Positions 949 to 45,530 of a stretch of DNA of 64,000 nt are shown here, piece by piece. The translations under genes and the position numbers were made by a program. The stretch's first letter is position 1. Every line of letters begins with the position of its first letter. The notes under the pieces are model-generated. The model ran no database searches. It saw only the letters and a program-made list of their open reading frames with translations, and had not been told where the DNA came from. The DNA is from Verrucomicrobiota bacterium (lineage in GTDB: Bacteria > Verrucomicrobiota > Kiritimatiellia > CAIQIC01 > JAGNIJ01): the NCBI GenBank assembly GCA_043803015.1, contig JAZDKK010000023.1, forward strand, positions 20,946 to 84,945. Direction: 5' to 3'.

Positions 949-2352
949 CTAGTAGCGGTAATGATCCGCCTTGAATGGACCGCTGGCGGGAATGCCGAGG
1001 TAGTCGGCCTGCCTCTTCGAAAGCTTCTCCAGCTTGACGCCCAACTTCTTGAGGTGCAGGCGGGCGACCATCTCGTCCAGCTTCTTCGGCAGGACGTAGA
1101 CGCCGACCGGGTACTTGCCGGGGTTCGTGTAGAGCTCGATCTGGGCGAGCGTCTGGTTCGTGAAGCTGTTCGACATCACGAAGCTCGGGTGGCCGGTCGC
1201 GCAGCCGAGGTTCACCAGCCGGCCCTCGGCCAGCAGGATGATGCTCCGGCCGCTGGGGAACGTGACCTTGTGCACCTGCGGCTTGATCTCCTCCCACCGG
1301 TACTTGTGGATCGGCTCCACCTGGATCTCGTGATCGAAGTGGCCGATGTTGCAGACGATGGCCAGGTCCTTCATCTGCCGCATGTGCCGCTCGGTGATCA
1401 CGTCGCAGCAGCCGGTGGCCGTGACGAAGAGGTCGCCGATTTTGCAGGCCTCGTCCATCGTCATCACCTCGTAGCCTTCCATGGCGGCCTGGAGGGCGCA
1501 GATTGGGTCGATCTCCGTGATGATCACGCGGGCGCACTGGCCCTTCAGCGACTGCGCGCTCCCCTTGCCCACGTCGCCGTAACCCGCTACCACAGCGACC
1601 TTTCCAGAGATCAGGACGTCCGTAGCGCGCATGATGCCGTCCACGAGCGAGTGGCGGCAGCCGTAGATGTTGTCGAACTTGGACTTGGTGACCGAGTCGT
1701 TCACGTTGAACGCCGGGAACAGCAGTTCGCCCTTCGCGTTCATCTGGTACAGCCGCTTGACGCCGGTGGTCGTCTCCTCGCTGACGCCGCGGATGTGCTT
1801 CACAATCCGGTGGAACCGCTTCGGGTCGCGCCGCAGGGACTTCTTGAGCTGTGCCAGGAGGACCTTCTCCTCGTGGCTCTCCGGCTTGCGGTTGAGGATC
1901 TTCGGGTTCTCCTCGGCCCTGTAGCCGAGATGAATGAAGAGCGTCGCGTCGCCGCCGTCGTCCACGATCATGTTCGGGCCCTGGCCCCCGCCCCAGTCCA
2001 GGATGCGGTCGGTGAAGACCCAGTACTGCTCGAGCGACTCGCCCTTGTAAGCGTAGACGGGCGTGCCCCGCGCGGCGATGGCCGACGCGGCATGGTCCTG
2101 GGTCGAGAAGATGTTGCAGCTCGCCCAGCGCACCCGCGCCCCGAGCATCTGCAGCGTCTCGATGAGCACCGCCGTCTGGATCGTCATGTGGAGGGACCCG
2201 GTGATCCGCGCGCCTTTCAGGGGCTTGGAGCGGCGGTACTTCTCCCGGATGGCCATCAGGCCCGGCATCTCCTGCTCGGCGAGCTCGATCTCCCGGCGCC
2301 CGAAATCGGCCAAGCGGATGTCCTTAACAACGAAGTCTTTGCTGCGTTTCAT
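949..2352 (-). CDS. ahcY: adenosylhomocysteinase (S-adenosyl-L-homocysteine hydrolase)
   Basis: ORF 949..2406 minus. Full-length similarity to AhcY, with an NAD-binding GxGxxG region ([10 protein letters not shown]). The start was chosen at MKRSKDF (ATG 2350-2352); the upstream TTG extension is unlikely. Confidence 0.95.
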
Positions 2353-2360
2353 GGTGTCAC

Positions 2361-2875
2361 CTCGCACAACGGATTCAACGTCCAACATCCAACTCTCAAC
2401 GTCCAACGTTCAACGGGACGCCAAACGTGCGCCCGAGAATAGCATTACTGCTTGGGTTTTCTAGCTGTTTTGATGGAAGAGACAAAGATTGCGATCAACT
2501 CATCTGTTTCCGTGAGGAGGCCGTCGAGTCTCGACACCGGCTTCAGCAGAGGCACCCGCTTACACAGCCGGAGCCACCGGTAGGACTCGCGCAACTCCTT
2601 GAGGCAGACTTTTATCTTGTGGATGAAGTCACTGCGCGACTCCGCCGCCTGGGCCTCGCCATGATTCGGCAGGGGCGAGGTGCCGGACCTCAGCAGCTGG
2701 TTGGCCACGTGATTCCCCGCCCGCGTCGAAGGCAATGCTTCAACCAGCCGGATGATCCTTGCGGCGTATTCGAGCAGGCGTTCCTCGAGGTCGAACTTCC
2801 GGACCGATTTCATGCTCCCCTCCTCGTTCGATGTTGGACGTTGGGCGTTGAGCGTTGGAAGTTCAATCCGTTCTA
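2361..2875. mobile_element. putative inverted-repeat-flanked mini-cassette carrying the four-helix-bundle gene
   Basis: An imperfect inverted repeat of ~50 bp sits at 2367-2417 and again in inverted orientation at 2820-2870. The left arm is AACGGATTCAACGTCCAACATCCAACTCTCAACGTCCAACG. Both arms are built from CAACG/TCCAAC 6-7-mers and exactly bracket the 369-bp gene. Confidence 0.4.
2445..2813 (-). CDS. four-helix-bundle protein (TIGR02436 family; formerly 23S rRNA intervening-sequence protein)
   Basis: 122-aa protein MKSVRKFDLEERLLEYAARIIRLVEALP..ANQLLRSGTS.. that matches the family signature; start is the ATG at 2811-2813. Confidence 0.8.
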   Translation of the reverse strand: MKSVRKFDLEERLLEYAARIIRLVEALPSTRAGNHVANQLLRSGTSPLPNHGEAQAAESRSDFIHKIKVCLKELRESYRWLRLCKRVPLLKPVSRLDGLLTETDELIAIFVSSIKTARKPKQ

Positions 2876-4033
2876 CAGCCGATGCGCCGCGTCCCGGATG
2901 AACCTCGATTCGGAGCCCTCGGACTCGCCGCCGACCTGGCGCGCGATGTTGACGAGGACGCCGATCATGGCGAGGGACATGACGAGGCTGGAACCGCCGA
3001 AGCTGATGAACGGGAGCGGCAGTCCCTTGGTCGGGAGGCTGCCGGTGACGACGCCGATGTTGATGGCCGCCTGGAGCGTGATCATGAGCGTGACCCCGAA
3101 GCCGAGCAGCTTGCCGAACTGGTCGGGGGCGCAGAAGCTGATGCGCACTCCGCAGAGGAAGAGGCCGAGGAACAGGAGCACCACCGAGAGCGAAGCGGTC
3201 AGGCCCAGCTCCTCGCCGATGATCGCGAAGATGAAATCCGTGTGCGCCTCGGGCAGGTAGAAGTGTTTCTGCAGGCTCTGGCCCAACCCGACGCCGGCGC
3301 CACCGCCGACCACGAAGGCGTAGATGGCGTTGAGGAGCTGAAACGCCTCGTCCTTCGCGTACCGCTCCGGGTTCAGGAACGCGGTGATGCGGCGCATGCG
3401 CTCGGCGTTCTACATGATGGCCAGGGTGAAGCCGGCGAGGCCGATCACGCCGGCGATCAGCAGGTAGCTCGGCCGCGCGCCCCCGACGAACATGATCGTC
3501 ATCCCGACCATCGCCACGAGCATCGTCGTCCCGAAATCCGGCTCGATGAAGATCAGACCCAGCAGGAGCCCCAGGCCGGCCAGCGGCAGCAGGAGCCCGC
3601 GCCCGAGCTCGCCGGCGTGGCGCTGGATGCGCGCCATCCACCACGCGAGGAAAACGACGGCGGCAAACTTCGCCAGTTCCGACGGCTCGAACGTGACCGG
3701 CCCGACGCGGATCCAGCGGCTGCTCCCCTTCACGTTCAGCCCGACGCCGGGGAGCAGCGCCATGATGAGCAGGGCCGCCGTGAAAAGCATGAGGGGGACG
3801 GCGAGCGGGCGCCAGTAGTGATAATCCGCATGCGACGTCGCCAACAAGGCGATGAACGCCACGACCAGCCAGGCGATCTGCCGCTTCAGAAAGTAGCCGG
3901 GATCGTCAAACTGCGACTTCCCCTGGACGCCGCTCGTGCTGGCCAGCATCACAATGCCCACGGTGACCAGGATGAGGACGATAGCGATCAGTATGCTGAT
4001 GGTCTTCCACATCGAACAACCGGACCCGCTCAA
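2873..4033 (-). pseudogene. ftsW: FtsW/RodA/SpoVE-family (SEDS) peptidoglycan polymerase interrupted by an in-frame TAG at 3410-3412
   Basis: Two minus-strand ORFs, 3410..4033 and 2873..3397, are in the same frame. The N-terminal part is transmembrane. The C-terminal part carries MRRITAFLNPE..YLPEAHTDFIFAIIGEELG..LPTKGLPLPFISFGGSS, the hallmark of FtsW. Only the TAG plus 4 codons (NAER) separate them. Confidence 0.75.
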
Positions 4034-4102: not shown

Positions 4103-4987
4103 TTACAGGGCCGTCGGCGGAATTCTCAGCTTCTGCCCCGGCTTGACACTCGCCGCATCCGAGATCCCGTTCAGCTTCATGAGATCGTCCTGACGCACCA
4201 GGAACAGCTTCGCAATGGACTCGAGCGAGTCGCCCGGCTGGACCGTGTAGTCGAGCGGCTGGTCCTGCGAAGAAACCTTGGGCTCCGCCGGGGCCGGCAT
4301 CGGCGGGGGCGCCATCTCGACTTTCGGCGCGGCGGCCGCCGGCATGCCTTCCAGCGACTCGGGGGCCAGCGGCCTGCTGGTGGGGATGATGAGCTTCTGC
4401 CCTACCATGATCTTGTCGCCCTTCAGCTGGTTGGCTTCGCGCAGGGCACCGAGCTTGATGCCGTGCCGGGAGGCGATCTTCGAGAGGTTGTCGCCCGCCT
4501 GGACCACGTAAGCGTTCCCGCCCTCGGGAACCGCGGCCGCAGGAGCCGCCTCGGGCTTGGCGGCCTTCTTCTTGTGCACGGGCGCCGCGCCGGGCGGCAC
4601 CGGCTTCGCGTACTCCGGCAAAACGATCTTCTGGCCGACGCGGATCTTGTTGGCATCCTTGATGCCGTTCAGCTCGGCGATCTCGCGCGAGCTCACGCCG
4701 AAGCGGCTCGCGATCTTCGAGAGCGAATCGCCGTTCTGCACCGCGTAGGTCCTGCTCTCGGCGGGCACCGCCATGGACGGCGCTGGCTCCACGGCCACCG
4801 GGGGCTGAATCGAGGGCTTGAGCACGGTCGGGGTGCCCGTTTCCGTCTTCGGCGGCATCACGGGCGTCGGCGGGGGTTCGACCTTGCCGGCACGCTTCGT
4901 CGTGCCGCACCCCTGGATACACACTACCGCGCTGACCGCCATGATATGTACAGCAACAACAGCAACCACTAGTATCGGGGCCCTCAT
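4103..4987 (-). CDS. LysM-repeat lipoprotein (three LysM domains separated by Pro/Ala-rich linkers)
   Basis: The start MRAPILVVAVVAVHIMAVSAVVCIQGCG is a signal peptide plus lipobox. It has three copies of the YxVQxGDSLSKIAxRxG..L..N LysM motif. An RBS GGAGACAC lies upstream of the ATG at 4985-4987. Confidence 0.8.
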   Translation of the reverse strand: MRAPILVVAVVAVHIMAVSAVVCIQGCGTTKRAGKVEPPPTPVMPPKTETGTPTVLKPSIQPPVAVEPAPSMAVPAESRTYAVQNGDSLSKIASRFGVSSREIAELNGIKDANKIRVGQKIVLPEYAKPVPPGAAPVHKKKAAKPEAAPAAAVPEGGNAYVVQAGDNLSKIASRHGIKLGALREANQLKGDKIMVGQKLIIPTSRPLAPESLEGMPAAAAPKVEMAPPPMPAPAEPKVSSQDQPLDYTVQPGDSLESIAKLFLVRQDDLMKLNGISDAASVKPGQKLRIPPTAL

Positions 4988-18472: not shown

Positions 18473-18550
18473 AACAACTTCCCTGTCCCTCCCAACCTCC
18501 GAGGAAGACCAACCGCGGATTTCGCGGATTGCACGGATAGGTAATGCGGA

Positions 18551-18610
18551 GTGGACCTCTGGTCCTTCCGTTTGCCCTTTGCGCTCTCTGCGTTCTCTCG
18601 CGGCAATTCC
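18551..18610. repeat. intergenic repeat family X copy
   Basis: GTGGACCTCTGGTCCTTCCGTTTGCCCTTTGCGCTCTCTGCGTTCTCTCGCGGCAATTCC, compared with 17484-17541 and 24216-24262. Confidence 0.5.
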
Positions 18611-18679
18611 TCTTTCGGCGAAGGCGCGAAGGAATAAGGGAAGGCGAACCGCGGACTTGTCCGCGGTGGCGGATTTCCT

Positions 18680-18727
18680 CGAAGCAGATGCTTCGCATCG
18701 CTTCGGGGCACGGCACGGATTTCACGG
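18680..18727. repeat. left boundary inverted repeat of the low-GC island
   Basis: CGAAGCAGATGCTTCGCATCGCTTCGGGGCACGGCACGGATTTCACGG matches the reverse complement of 24143-24189 at ~45 of 50 positions. The related segment 18525-18560 matches the reverse complement of 24110-24155. Confidence 0.5.
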
Positions 18728-20300: not shown

Positions 20301-20353
20301 TTCGATCCCCTTTCCTGCAACGTCTGCCTTCAGCATCCGTAGTCTGGGGTAGT

Positions 20354-20632
20354 CCGGGGTCGAACCATAGCTTTCTCTAGAGCACCAACCACTTATGACT
20401 CCCAGAACCCACTTTTCACCCCTTACAGCTTCTTTTTCAGCCCGAAAATCGCTGCTAAGGCTCCCGTTCCTTGCGCAACACCCTCCCACCCGCGCCCTTG
20501 GGAGCTCAAGACGTGGCCGAAAAGAGCCTGTAAGCCCCCGTCTTAGCCCCTCTTGCCGTCGTAGGTCGTTGCCTGCCTAGACCGACCTGCTGCGCCTCGC
20601 CGAAGCCCCGGGCGAAGGCGGGTGGTCCAACC
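20354..20632. repeat. MITE-like repeat copy A (TIR CCGGGGTCG.ACC)
   Basis: Over 20375-20590 it shares ~85% identity with 22150-22365 (TCTAGAGCACCAACC..GCTCAAGACGTGGCCGAAAAGAGCCTGTAAGCCCCCGT..). It sits immediately 5' of the gene starting at 20300. Confidence 0.6.
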
Positions 20633-21339: not shown

Positions 21340-21349
21340 GTTTCCGCCT

Positions 21350-21456
21350 CCGGGGTCCTCCGGGGTCGGACCACAGGTTCCTCTAGAGCACCAACCAGTT
21401 ACAGTTCCCAGAACCCCGCTTAGCGTCCAAGTGGGGTTCGCCTTCTACGACCCCGG
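21350..21456. repeat. MITE-like repeat copy B (short form, ~107 bp)
   Basis: It starts CCGGGGTCCTCCGGGGTCGGACCACAGGTTCCTCTAGAGCACCAACCAG and ends CGACCCCGG. It sits immediately 5' of the gene starting at 21339. Confidence 0.55.
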
Positions 21457-22104: not shown

Positions 22105-22384
22105 CCGGGGTCGGACCACCCGCCTTCGCCAGAGGCTACGGCGGGCACGACAGGTTGCTCTAGAGCACCAACCAGTTACAACTCCCAGAACCCCGCTTTT
22201 CACCCCTTACAGCCTCTTTTTCGGCCCGAGAACTGGCCGCAAGACTCCCGTTCCTCAGGCAGCACCGCCGCTCACGCCCTTAGAAGCTCAAGACGTGGCC
22301 GAAAAGAGCCTGTAAGCCCCCGTTTTGGCCCTTTTGCCGTCGTAAGTCGTTGGCTCCCTAGACAGACCTGTGGTCCGACCCCGG
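22105..22384. repeat. MITE-like repeat copy C (full form, with terminal inverted repeats)
   Basis: The left end is CCGGGGTCGGACCACC.. and the right end is ..CCTGTGGTCCGACCCCGG. A nested ~30-bp insert, CCGCCTTCGCCAGAGGCTACGGCGGGCACG, lies in the left TIR. It sits immediately 5' of the gene starting at 22080. Its right TIR encodes the last 8 codons of the 22358..23092 gene. Confidence 0.6.
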
Positions 22385-23847: not shown

Positions 23848-24142
23848 CTTTGTTCTCCTGCAGAACAGTTTGCATTACTCAGTTAGGTTCACGCTTCCCT
23901 ATCCCTGCCGAATCCGGTGCCAGGCCAACCGTTGCCTATCCTGGCTGAGGTTGTCTTCCCCTCCTGCCGCGATCCGGATGCAGTCCGCCGTAGCGGGGGC
24001 GAGTATAGCGGGAGGGAGGGAAGCGCGCAATGCGCGCTTCAGGTTCAGAGTTCAAGGTTCAACCCGCCTACGGCGGGCAAGCATCGAACTAGGAAGCAGG
24101 CGCGTAGAAAGGAGGATCGGAGGTCCACCCCATGTTACCTAT

Positions 24143-24189
24143 CCGTGTAATCCGCGCTGTGCCCTGAAGCGATGCGAAGCATCTGCTTC
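24143..24189. repeat. right boundary inverted repeat of the low-GC island
   Basis: It is the reverse complement of 18680-18727 (CGAAGCAGATGCTTCGCATCGCTTC core plus CGGATT.CACGG tail). Confidence 0.5.
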
Positions 24190-24215
24190 GGGGTAATCCG
24201 CGGTTAGGCTTTTCC

Positions 24216-44165: not shown

Positions 44166-45530
44166 TCATGGCTTCCCGGCCCGAAGCAGGCCCATGGCGT
44201 GGTCCAGCCCAGCCCGGGCCAGGGCCACGTCCGCCCGGGCCGCGATGACTTGGTTCTGTGCCTCGGTGAGCTGGGCATGCGCATCGAGCACGTCGGAATG
44301 ACGGGCCAGGCCGTTCTTCCAGAGGTCCGTTGCCGCGGCGAGGTTGCGCGTGGCGCTCAACTCCGCGCGCTCGGCGACGGTCACCCGCTCCAGGGCATCC
44401 TTCAGGTTGATGCCCGCTTCCTTGACCTCGAGCGTGATCTGTTCGTTCTTGTGCTGGAGCCGCAGGTGGGCCTGGGTGGCGCGGGCGGCGGCCTCCGAGG
44501 CTCGCGCGCGGGTGAGTCCCCAGTCCAGCAGGTTCCATGTCACGGCCACGCCCACGTACGTGTCGTCCTGCCACTCGTCCGCCGGCGGGATGTTGAGGAT
44601 GTTCGGATTTGCCTGTTCGTAGTGCGCGGTCAGGAAAAGCTGGGGCCGTAGGCCCGCTCGGCTTGCCTTCGCTGCGGCTTCGGAGGATTTCGCCTCCAGT
44701 TCGCCCGCGGCCCGGTCCGGCCGGTTGGAGGCCGCCGCGCCCAGCGACTCCACTTCGGGCGGCACGGTCTGGCCGGGCGGCACGGCGGCCTGCTGGGGAA
44801 CCGCGTTGCCGGGGAGCTCGCGGCAGGTGAGGAAGGTGATCCGGGCGCGGGATACCTCCGTGCGGCGCCGCGCTTCTTCAAGGCGAAGGCGGGTCTGGTC
44901 GAGCAGCACGTCGGTGGCCAGCGCGTCGTTGTCGGTGGCGAGGCCTGCCGCGTGGAGGTTGTGCATGTCCGTGGCGTGGGCCGCCATCCGGTCCGTCGCC
45001 GCTTTCAGCGCCTCGAGCGAGTAGTAGGCTTTGGACCAGTTCCAGTAGGCTGTCAGCGCTTGCAGGGCGAGATCCGACTCGGTGCTGCGGCGCGTCTCGC
45101 GGACCGCTTGACGCTGGTAGTTCGCTCCCTTCTTCTCGTTCCCGATCCGGCCACCGGTGTAGACCGGCTGGGAGAGCCGCACGGCGGCGCCGTAGCGGTC
45201 CGGGATGGCCGGGATCACCATGCCGGGGCCCAAGGCCGAATCCGTCAGGCCCTCGTAGTGTCCGGCGTGGGCGTCAAGGCTGAGCGAGGGAAACGCCTGG
45301 GCATCGGCCTGTGTCTTCTGCGCCTGGGCGACAGCCACCTCCTGATCCGAGAGCTTGAGCACAGGGCTGTACGCCAGCGCGTCAGCCACCACCCGCTCGG
45401 GACTGACGGTGGGGTTGTTCTCCTCGGCTCGCACCAGCGCAGGCAAGCCGACCAGAAGCAGAGTCAACCCGCCCAACAGGACCCGACATTCGGCATTCGG
45501 CCATCGGCCATCGGCCATGGTGCGTTTCAT
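44166..45530 (-). CDS. TolC-family outer membrane efflux protein
   Basis: The start is MKRTMADGRW.., followed by a signal peptide. It has the duplicated TolC coiled-coil/beta-barrel repeat architecture. The ORF-track 711-aa version over-extends upstream. Confidence 0.85.
   Translation of the reverse strand: MKRTMADGRWPNAECRVLLGGLTLLLVGLPALVRAEENNPTVSPERVVADALAYSPVLKLSDQEVAVAQAQKTQADAQAFPSLSLDAHAGHYEGLTDSALGPGMVIPAIPDRYGAAVRLSQPVYTGGRIGNEKKGANYQRQAVRETRRSTESDLALQALTAYWNWSKAYYSLEALKAATDRMAAHATDMHNLHAAGLATDNDALATDVLLDQTRLRLEEARRRTEVSRARITFLTCRELPGNAVPQQAAVPPGQTVPPEVESLGAAASNRPDRAAGELEAKSSEAAAKASRAGLRPQLFLTAHYEQANPNILNIPPADEWQDDTYVGVAVTWNLLDWGLTRARASEAAARATQAHLRLQHKNEQITLEVKEAGINLKDALERVTVAERAELSATRNLAAATDLWKNGLARHSDVLDAHAQLTEAQNQVIAARADVALARAGLDHAMGLLRAGKP

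Follow-up and report, generated by a model that had tools for sequence, protein, structure and literature searches.

Intervening sequences (IVSs) of rRNA are excised by RNase III, the Avd protein of diversity-generating retroelements (DGRs) is a nucleic-acid-binding pentamer, and among the long simple repeats of bacteria, tandem heptamers are the commonest kind. In Coxiella, three to four GACAGAT units, whose copy number varies between strains, lie ahead of the S23p open reading frame (ORF) of the IVS (PMC4990558), and PF05635 is a Pfam family resembling Avd (PMC10053308). Heptamer arrays have been described in Xanthomonas and Nostoc (PMC4692102), in Beggiatoaceae, cyanobacteria and Bacteroidetes (PMC4679880), and in Geobacter (PMC2700814). 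They are transcribed and show a patchy cross-phylum distribution; most lie between co-oriented ORFs, often in convergent pairs, of which X. campestris has 70, and their function and transfer mechanism were declared unknown (PMC4692102, PMC4679880, PMC2700814). The same papers draw no connection to a four-helix-bundle gene. We could not identify BOGUAY_0693, of which a genome rich in TAACTGA has 29 copies. Here, we describe a cassette at positions 2368-2872 of a 64,000-nucleotide stretch (hereafter, the window) of contig JAZDKK010000023.1 from a Verrucomicrobiota bacterium (assembly GCA_043803015.1), in which a four-helix-bundle gene of the TIGR02436/PF05635 family lies between two opposed heptamer arrays. 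We conclude that the unit of inheritance is the gene together with the two arrays, which was gained in an operon spacer and is probably expressed by read-through.

The cassette, 505 bp in length, is read on the minus strand as a terminus, a heptamer array, a Shine-Dalgarno (SD) sequence, the gene, a second heptamer array and a terminus. The upstream (mRNA 5') arm begins with the outer terminus AACGGATT (2865-2872, minus strand), which abuts the ftsW stop codon, and continues with the six units GAACTTC, CAACGCT, CAACGCC, CAACGTC, CAACATC and GAACGAG (2823-2864, minus strand). The last unit, GAACGAG, overlaps the SD-like GAGGAGGG (2817-2824, minus strand; read from the sequence), which stands 5 nt ahead of the ATG of the gene. 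The downstream array consists of the six units CAACGTC, CAACATC, CAACTCT, CAACGTC, CAACGTT and CAACGGG (2376-2417, plus strand) and is of the GTT type on the mRNA strand; the terminus outside it (2368-2375, plus strand) reads AACGGATT on the plus strand and AATCCGTT on the mRNA strand. Each arm is composed of this 8-nt terminus and six tandem heptamers with the family consensus SAACRTY. The right arm runs up to 2872, directly before the ftsW stop codon (2873-2875). On the other side, 15 nt separate the ahcY ATG (2350-2352) from position 2368, where the left arm begins just beyond the ahcY SD.

In a repeat search of the window, the arms were the one outstanding pair, an inverted repeat of 48 nt (2368-2415 and 2825-2872, 409 nt apart) in which 38 of 48 positions (79%) are complementary. 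An earlier reading made from the sequence alone (the sequence-only reading) had bracketed the gene with a ~50-bp imperfect inverted repeat at 2367-2417 and 2820-2870; this is confirmed, with its ends right within a few bases, as is the presence of tandem units in the arms, whereas the period is 7 and not 6-7 as proposed. A 19-mer of the arm, searched with up to three mismatches, matched four times in the window, always within the two arms, and never in 100 shuffles. Neither a further arm nor a second copy of the gene (phmmer, all six-frame ORFs) was found in the 64-kb window. Searches of the window and of a gene-less hairpin (see below) against Rfam gave no match at the gathering threshold and chance matches only at E ≤ 1 (flavivirus xrRNA and, for the hairpin, miRNA precursors), and PADLOC gave no defence-system match.

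The gene (2445-2813, minus strand; ATG 2811-2813, TAA 2445-2447) is 369 bp long including the stop codon and encodes 122 residues. The protein scored 78.9 bits against the TIGR02436 profile (cut-off 24) and 41.1 bits against PF05635 (cut-off 33.8), and matched no other profile, in agreement with the gene length and the TIGR02436-type assignment of the sequence-only reading. A phmmer comparison with 2RLD gave E = 2.4e-14. The AlphaFold2 model, built on 44 homologues, consists of four long helices (pLDDT 92.4), and Foldseek gave template modelling (TM) scores of 0.81 to BT_0352 (2RLD), 0.82 to Xcc0516 (2GSC) and 0.65-0.67 to the DGR protein Avd (4DWL, 8UB7). The crystal entries 2RLD and 2GSC hold five chains apiece. 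The protein is basic (isoelectric point 10.0) and retains the family motif QLxRSxxS...N..E...S..DF..K...E..E...WL in the form QLLRSGTS..N..E...S..DF..K...E..E...WL. Over close members and members of 30-43% identity, residues Q39, R42, S43, T45, S46, N50, E53, S59, D62, F63, K66, E73, E76 and W80 are invariant or at least 90% conserved. The cassette gene is thus, by sequence, fold and motif, a genuine member of the 23S-rRNA-IVS/four-helix-bundle family.

This family is large, with 7,950 clusters (50% identity, E ≤ 0.001) among 1.84 billion representatives, and all except 21 of 8,000 word-sharing candidates reached E ≤ 1e-5. The median ratio of nonsynonymous to synonymous substitution rates (dN/dS) was 0.094 over 226 pairs of cassette genes with 80-97% DNA identity; this low value shows that the protein is maintained by strong purifying selection. 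Many family members in the databases (P0010, P0013, P0083, P0116, P0243 and others) are recorded as 140-240 residues long, with homology starting at residue 20-60. In these over-long records the start codon was probably called too far upstream, through a stop-free heptamer array, a shift that is of practical concern.

To place the cassette among its close relatives, a genome collection was scanned, which yielded 80 loci with 64-78% identical homologues, 78 of them usable, in metagenome-assembled genomes (MAGs) labelled Verrucomicrobiota, Lentisphaerota, Kiritimatiellota, Planctomycetota, Desulfobacterota, Chlamydiota and others. In 67 of the 78 loci, a '+' SAACRTY array lies within 200 nt upstream of the gene and a reverse-complement '-' array lies downstream, with unit counts per array peaking at 4-6 and median gaps of 22 nt from array to start codon and 21 nt from stop codon to array. 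The free positions of the unit S-A-A-C-R-T-Y are nearly limited to two bases each. AAC-phased arrays numbered 326 in 523 kb, compared with 34 in shuffles. The unit is unchanged in hosts whose flanks range from 37 to 70% GC, and the GC content of the gene tracks that of the host (r = 0.92) at a level about 10 points lower. By crude ORF calls, 119 of 147 neighbours are on the strand of the gene. Array pairs of the '+/-' type without a gene were also seen (L002, L006, L033, L045, L052, L057 and L067). These results indicate that opposed heptamer arrays are a hallmark of this gene family in many bacterial phyla.

For the distant homologues (16 genes of 30-43% identity, 14 on annotated plasmids of cyanobacteria, Chloroflexota, Bacteroidota, Spirochaetota and Bacillota and two on gut phage contigs), period-7 flanks with other units were observed in 14 of 16, that is, in all 14 plasmid copies, mostly as inverted pairs. 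Several flank pairs were perfect, among them AATTCAA x4/TTTTGAA x4, AATTCGC x4/TTGCGAA x4 and TAATTCG x4/TTACGAA x4. The core of the unit was AATTC at L089, L093 and L095, AATC at L087, L094 and L096, CTTC/GAAG in a cyanobacterium (L088) and a member of the Chloroflexota (L090), and CAGTT/AACTG in a member of the Bacteroidota (L098) and a cyanobacterium (L099), compared with AAC in the protein clade of the window. At the level of sequence, these comparisons show that the 4-nt heptamer core follows the protein clade across phyla and not the host. The published arrays agree with this flank pattern: the gene for Xcc0516 (PDB 2GSC) has a four-unit GGGAATC array overlapping its start (PMC4692102 supplement), and the Coxiella array is mentioned above.

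The same comparisons bear on the explanation that the arrays are independent repeats, spread alone by polymerase slippage or as host regulatory sites, with four-helix-bundle genes landing nearby. Arrays are indeed frequent without a gene, the papers that describe heptamers as abundant intergenic elements of Xanthomonas, Nostoc, Beggiatoaceae and Geobacter do not mention the gene, and the ftsW-ahcY spacer of one cassette-free relative (L082, below) holds a different, direct heptamer-like array. Nevertheless, close homologues from several phyla and from hosts of 37-70% GC all carry SAACRTY, the nearest protein neighbours from different phyla share a core, and conservation extends, along with the gene, to the termini that lie outside the arrays. 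We therefore consider independent repeats very improbable.

Both neighbours are co-oriented with the gene in 11 of the 14 annotated plasmid loci, and cassettes often lie within operons, such as those of helicase-methylase, hsdS-hsdR, RND pump and cas genes; an earlier report had placed such genes between cmr2 and cmr3. Cassettes in these positions, including defence and cas operons, could in practice be mistaken for functional parts of those systems. Family members within defence operons were seen at L097 (Anabaena cylindrica pANACY.01), L088 (Pseudanabaena pPg_04), L090, L094, L095 and L100. Their positions are the interval from cas2 to cas1, the site ahead of cas1, the spacer that separates helicase from methylase genes, the side of a Swt1-HEPN gene and, for a frame-broken copy in Monoglobus, the gap between hsdS and hsdR. 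These sites may explain the reported 'associations' of 23S_rRNA_IVP with CRISPR-Cas loci.

The extent of the unit is delimited by copies within single genomes. Paralogues in the same MAG are alike only over the gene and the arrays (91% for L060/L070 and 85% for L042/L061), this subgroup has the sharp ends AAAAGATGAAC...GTTCATCTTTT, and related species hold the cassette at the same site (L053/L059/L073). At several Desulfobacterota MAG loci, a second and larger inverted repeat, CGCTAAGTTGTTTTTGCCCAGGAGG ... CAACCTGTGAACGTTTACAAAATAACTTAGCG, surrounds the cassette (L042 2260-2300 and 2830-2870, with equivalents at L060, L061 and L070), which suggests insertion into another palindromic repeat or a composite element.

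A metagenome scan with the terminal 19-mer of the window returned 38 stretches, of which about 16 were chance matches without arrays and 22 were genuine. At all 22 genuine loci the arrays begin with the same 8-mer, AACGGATT. Three of them hold a 65-67% identical gene between arms 414 nt apart, ten (eight of them distinct) are gene-less hairpins with loops of 25-130 nt and the ends AACGGATT...A(A/G)TCCGTT, and nine are single arms. The termini of the hairpin loci L108 and L136 match the cassette ends. Gene-less hairpins sit in very short spacers between co-oriented genes. These counts show that, as far as sequence matches can tell, the termini and arrays of the window occur more often as gene-less hairpins than with the gene. 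Two further arrangements were noted: a small GC-rich palindrome, GGTGCGCACTGCGCACC, lies inside a heptamer arm of gene-less hairpins at L110 (~4830-4967), L114 (1858-2080; = L119) and L127 (3519-3740), and the end of a contig has three or more tandem copies of a 118-nt unit with one 5' arm (AACGGATTGAAC... followed by six heptamers; L115 10737-10991; L107 1500-1631).

Regarding mobility, the sequence-only reading had described a selfish or mobile cassette, and had held that a lack of other copies, together with relatives carrying the gene without flanking repeats, would argue against it. Copies exist elsewhere and 67 of 78 loci have arrays; the discrete, recurring unit is borne out by its occurrence across phyla, by paralogues, by the metagenome termini and by empty relatives, whereas mobility itself is read from this distribution. 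One form of mobility would be that of a non-autonomous DNA transposon resembling a miniature inverted-repeat transposable element (MITE), with the arms as terminal inverted repeats for an unlinked transposase and the gene as a passenger. The sharp, conserved ends, the multiple copies within genomes, the common gene-less copies with identical termini, and arm mismatches without strand bias, which fit symmetry at the DNA level, are in line with this explanation. However, neither the junctions of the window copy nor the 10 hairpins showed a target-site duplication, a direct repeat or a target consensus, and no transposase gene adjoins the cassette in the window. In addition, the cargo is always the same gene family, it is under strong purifying selection, and the heptamer core co-varies with its clade across phyla. 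These points make a passenger gene in a MITE-like transposon quite unlikely.

Instead, 2368-2872 is probably one copy of a very large, cross-phylum cassette family in which the heptamers would be read in register and the gene-less hairpins would be derivatives. Members of this family have a gene for a basic four-helix-bundle protein of ~120 residues, set between two facing arrays of about 4-6 heptamers with short conserved termini. Among these hairpin repeats, the cassette with the gene would be the 'autonomous' form, and its gene-less derivatives would be related to it in the way that REPINs are related to RAYTs.

The arms themselves were then considered as an RNA structure. When the two arms were joined by GAAA, the predicted folding energy was -53.3 kcal/mol, compared with -26.0 ± 3.5 kcal/mol for shuffles (z = -7.7), and the arms close a long stem in the fold of a 561-nt transcript, so that the long stem looked for by the sequence-only reading is predicted. 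As in IVSs, terminal inverted repeats can pair here into a stem that encloses the ORF. A pure IVS-type RNA element would account for this stem: the arms would form a double-stranded RNA cut by RNase III, freeing the four-helix-bundle mRNA and parting the ftsW mRNA from the ahcY mRNA, and the heptamers would be incidental products of slippage, read by no protein. The cassette is sense-oriented within the transcription unit, as this explanation expects, and in Coxiella the 5' cut falls at the first heptamer (PMC4990558).

The variation among arms, however, does not follow the stem. The match between arms at variable positions was 0.715 for a locus's own arms and 0.703 when the unit order was shuffled (p = 0.2), giving no pair-by-pair covariation beyond unit composition. 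Transition mismatches showed no bias toward G·U on the mRNA strand (99 versus 89, p = 0.5), and the antisense strand folds equally well (-56 kcal/mol). Neither the covariation test nor the G·U test singles out an RNA stem on the mRNA strand. In the subgroup with the ATGAAC terminus, the unit order is conserved, and the first unit is GAACATC upstream and GAACGTC downstream, in 9 of 12 loci each, a conserved A·C mismatch, and each arm is conserved separately. The arrays of this subgroup have an identity of 0.83-0.87, or ~0.70-0.77 outside the AAC detection core, whereas the gene has 0.54 at codon position 3 and 0.68 at positions 1+2; the arrays are better conserved than position 3 and at least as well as positions 1+2. 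Single arms without a partner are also common. Given these results, an element acting through its RNA stem alone is unlikely. The fixed 3-4-nt core, the two-base choices, the strict 7-nt register and the lack of covariation point to tandem recognition sites rather than a maintained helix, and we favour the interpretation that the arms are such sites in a 7-nt register, the RNA stem being a secondary property.

The history of the locus was examined through its neighbours. The minus-strand order in the window is ftsW, the 122-codon ORF and ahcY. The upstream neighbour, ftsW (2873-4012, minus strand; stop codon 2873-2875), matches TIGR02614/PF01098 on both halves and has an in-frame TAG at 3410-3412; the downstream neighbour, ahcY (949-2352, minus strand; ATG 2350-2352), scores 614 bits against TIGR00936 and has the SD GAGGTG at 2358-2363. 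The closest FtsW proteins on record (75-80% identity) are encoded on contigs ordered murF-mraY-murD-LysM protein-ftsW-ahcY, where the ftsW-ahcY spacer is 116-143 nt long and contains neither a four-helix-bundle gene nor a hairpin. In the window the spacer is 520 nt and is nearly filled by the 505-bp cassette. Because these relatives keep ftsW and ahcY adjacent without the cassette, the gene orders show that the junction is ancestral in the group and that the cassette was gained in the lineage of the window. The comparison with relatives lacking the insertion, which the sequence-only reading had proposed, hence yielded a conserved gene order around a short, gene-free spacer, and the proposed location at a broken end of the dcw cluster is not supported.

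The link drawn to an interrupted ftsW is not supported either. At the TAG, six of seven close relatives have Gln (CAG) and one has His; the remaining gene is intact, and the single CAG-to-TAG change is ~540 bp from the cassette. It probably stems from a mutation at this one position, from polymorphism among strains, or from an error in the consensus or assembly of the MAG, and is unrelated to the cassette.

A scan of 2250-3000 detected no promoter-like or terminator-like site and no T-run, which suggests that the cassette gene and ahcY are probably expressed by read-through from upstream. The sequence shows the cassette gene in the sense orientation of the operon, with a predicted SD of its own. 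In the relatives L081 and L082, a promoter-like site (TTGTCT-17-TATCTT) stands before ahcY, and the window lacks it. In relatives that lack the cassette, the ftsW stop codon is followed at once by tandem repeats of other kinds (L082 5141-5190; L085 5141-5170; L081 5220-5260), namely direct heptamer-like units TTCCAGA TTCCAGG TTTCAAG... in L082 and 10-mers with CACGGAC in L085. The murD of the closest relative (L081 1584-2931) was called as two overlapping ORFs of 322 and 136 residues, which suggests a frameshift or an assembly error.

An ordinary host feature or coincidence (a terminator, an attenuator or a chance palindrome), or a DGR avd gene, is barely credible as an explanation of the locus. 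The intergenic position with a strong hairpin and the fold match to Avd would fit it; the absence of a T-run or terminator-like site, the shuffles without arm matches and the relatives without a hairpin argue against a host feature, and the neighbours, which are ftsW and ahcY and not a reverse transcriptase, argue against a DGR, as does the lack of any direct repeat of at least 40 nt (a template/variable repeat pair) at the region; the reverse transcriptase screen covered the neighbours of the cassette. Other candidates were rejected: an integron cassette because there are two symmetric arms and no single attC-like site, and a CRISPR-like array because there are no spacers.

Elsewhere in the window, a period-7 array (CATTCGG CATTCGG CCATCGG CCATCGG) at 45487-45518 lies in the first codons of a minus-strand ORF starting at 45529, in a signal-peptide-like region; it is neither part of a hairpin pair nor of the SAACRTY type. 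A 59-nt inverted repeat (90% complementary) with an adjacent 44-nt pair (18523-18727 and 24113-24201) encloses ~5.4 kb, inside which segments of 64-86 nt are present in two or three copies (20343-20549, 21349-21416 and 22126-22384). A composite mobile element is one possibility for the bracketed segment, and a module repeated in intergenic DNA is another.

For the cassette family proposed above, the mechanism can be outlined as follows. A trans-acting factor would read the heptamers, on DNA or RNA, in their 7-nt register; the putatively pentameric protein encoded by the cassette is the most likely candidate. The arms of a read-through transcript could pair into an imperfect ~48-bp stem, as in the rRNA IVSs excised by RNase III, and the insert, closed off by this stem, would be tolerated within an operon. 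Copying could proceed by recombination between arrays, by a host nuclease or reverse transcriptase, or by hairpin-directed events. The most likely working model, to which we give somewhat less than even weight, is that the Avd-like pentamer made from the cassette reads the heptamers in register, with the abundant gene-less hairpins and arrays as its non-autonomous relatives.

Several observations weigh against the cassette family as proposed, or limit it. The FtsW proteins of the cassette-free relatives share no more than 75-80% identity with that of the window, and no alignment is obtained between the relatives' spacers and the flanks of the cassette, so that insertion and replacement are indistinguishable and the junctions undefinable; no recent filled/empty pair was found. 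The missing target-site signature noted above counts here too. No nuclease or recombinase motif is recognisable in the protein, which could not move DNA alone; binding, cleavage and transposition are all inferred steps. The match of ~5 units to a pentamer is only suggestive, and the pentamer itself is taken from the five chains per crystal entry and from published Avd work. Heptamers are absent from the flanks of the two family members carried on gut phage contigs. On a Nostoc flagelliforme plasmid (two 50-kb stretches, with one annotated four-helix-bundle gene), only one pair of the 13 heptamer arrays in 100 kb flanks the gene, and a 125-residue ORF beside an AATTACG array there is not a family member. 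Finally, the taxonomic labels of the MAGs are partly unreliable, and array detection demanded an exact AAC, so that the conservation of the core is inflated.

A broader hypothesis is that PF05635/TIGR02436 pentamers are sequence-specific partners of tandem heptamer repeats, each clade reading its own 4-nt core at a spacing of 7 nt. Cassettes with the gene and hairpins or arrays without it would make up one huge class of selfish or semi-domesticated elements, to which the cyanobacterial short tandemly repeated repetitive (STRR) sequences, Xanthomonas GGGAATC, TAACTGA, the Geobacter sites and the ORF-bearing IVSs would belong; we put it forward with rather more reserve, as a possibility short of an even chance. 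If it is true, the origin of ORF-bearing 23S IVSs and the long-unexplained abundance of heptamers would be explained, and the DGR Avd would be a recruited member of a family that binds nucleic-acid arrays. Three separate puzzles, the role of the 23S IVS ORF (since 1993), the commonness of tandem heptamers in bacteria with the purpose of the STRR, GGGAATC and TAACTGA arrays (since 1990) and the origin of Avd, would merge into one testable hypothesis, in which a pentameric protein reads 7-nt repeats. The reagents are at hand, in two crystallised members and in culturable Nostoc and Xanthomonas. In the full-text literature, no link between the gene family and heptamer flanks was found beyond the Coxiella note, most subscription papers (among them the original Leptospira IVS and STRR papers) and the comments in family databases being outside the coverage; an earlier description of a gene-heptamer link is possible, and the family-wide link is the part that deserves follow-up.

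Compared with the 23S rRNA IVSs of Leptospira and Coxiella burnetii, the window element has a homologous ORF (PF05635/TIGR02436), a length of a few hundred bases and terminal inverted repeats that enclose the ORF. It differs in lying in an mRNA spacer between protein genes and not in 23S helix 25/45, and no rRNA or other Rfam family was found in the 64-kb window. Furthermore, the Coxiella IVS ORF is reported as decaying, whereas the protein of the window's family is under strong purifying selection.

The likeness to the DGR Avd (PDB 4DWL, 8UB7) consists in the four-helix-bundle fold, the small size and the basic charge; the sequence identity is only 16-18%, and neither a reverse transcriptase nor a pair of template/variable repeats is adjacent. 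The avd genes are not known to lie between heptamer arrays, and such arrays are missing at the two phage-contig members of the family. The likeness to REPIN/RAYT systems and MITEs is one of architecture only, with a gene between inverted repeat copies and the repeat also scattered as gene-less hairpins. Unlike a RAYT, the protein lacks any known catalytic motif and does not belong to the HUH/Y1 transposases, the repeat is a heptamer array and not a single palindrome, and there is no target-site duplication.

The arms also resemble the cyanobacterial STRR sequences, the Xanthomonas GGGAATC, the Beggiatoaceae and cyanobacterial TAACTGA and the Geobacter heptanucleotide sites (four or five units), which likewise have 4-6 tandem 7-nt units in short spacers. 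The window has six units per arm, convergent and intergenic, between the co-oriented ftsW and ahcY, and distant homologues of its gene are flanked by AATCCCC and TAACTG-like units, as in the published repeats. The window unit, SAACRTY, differs from those repeats in sequence, and its arrays differ in forming the ends of a gene cassette.

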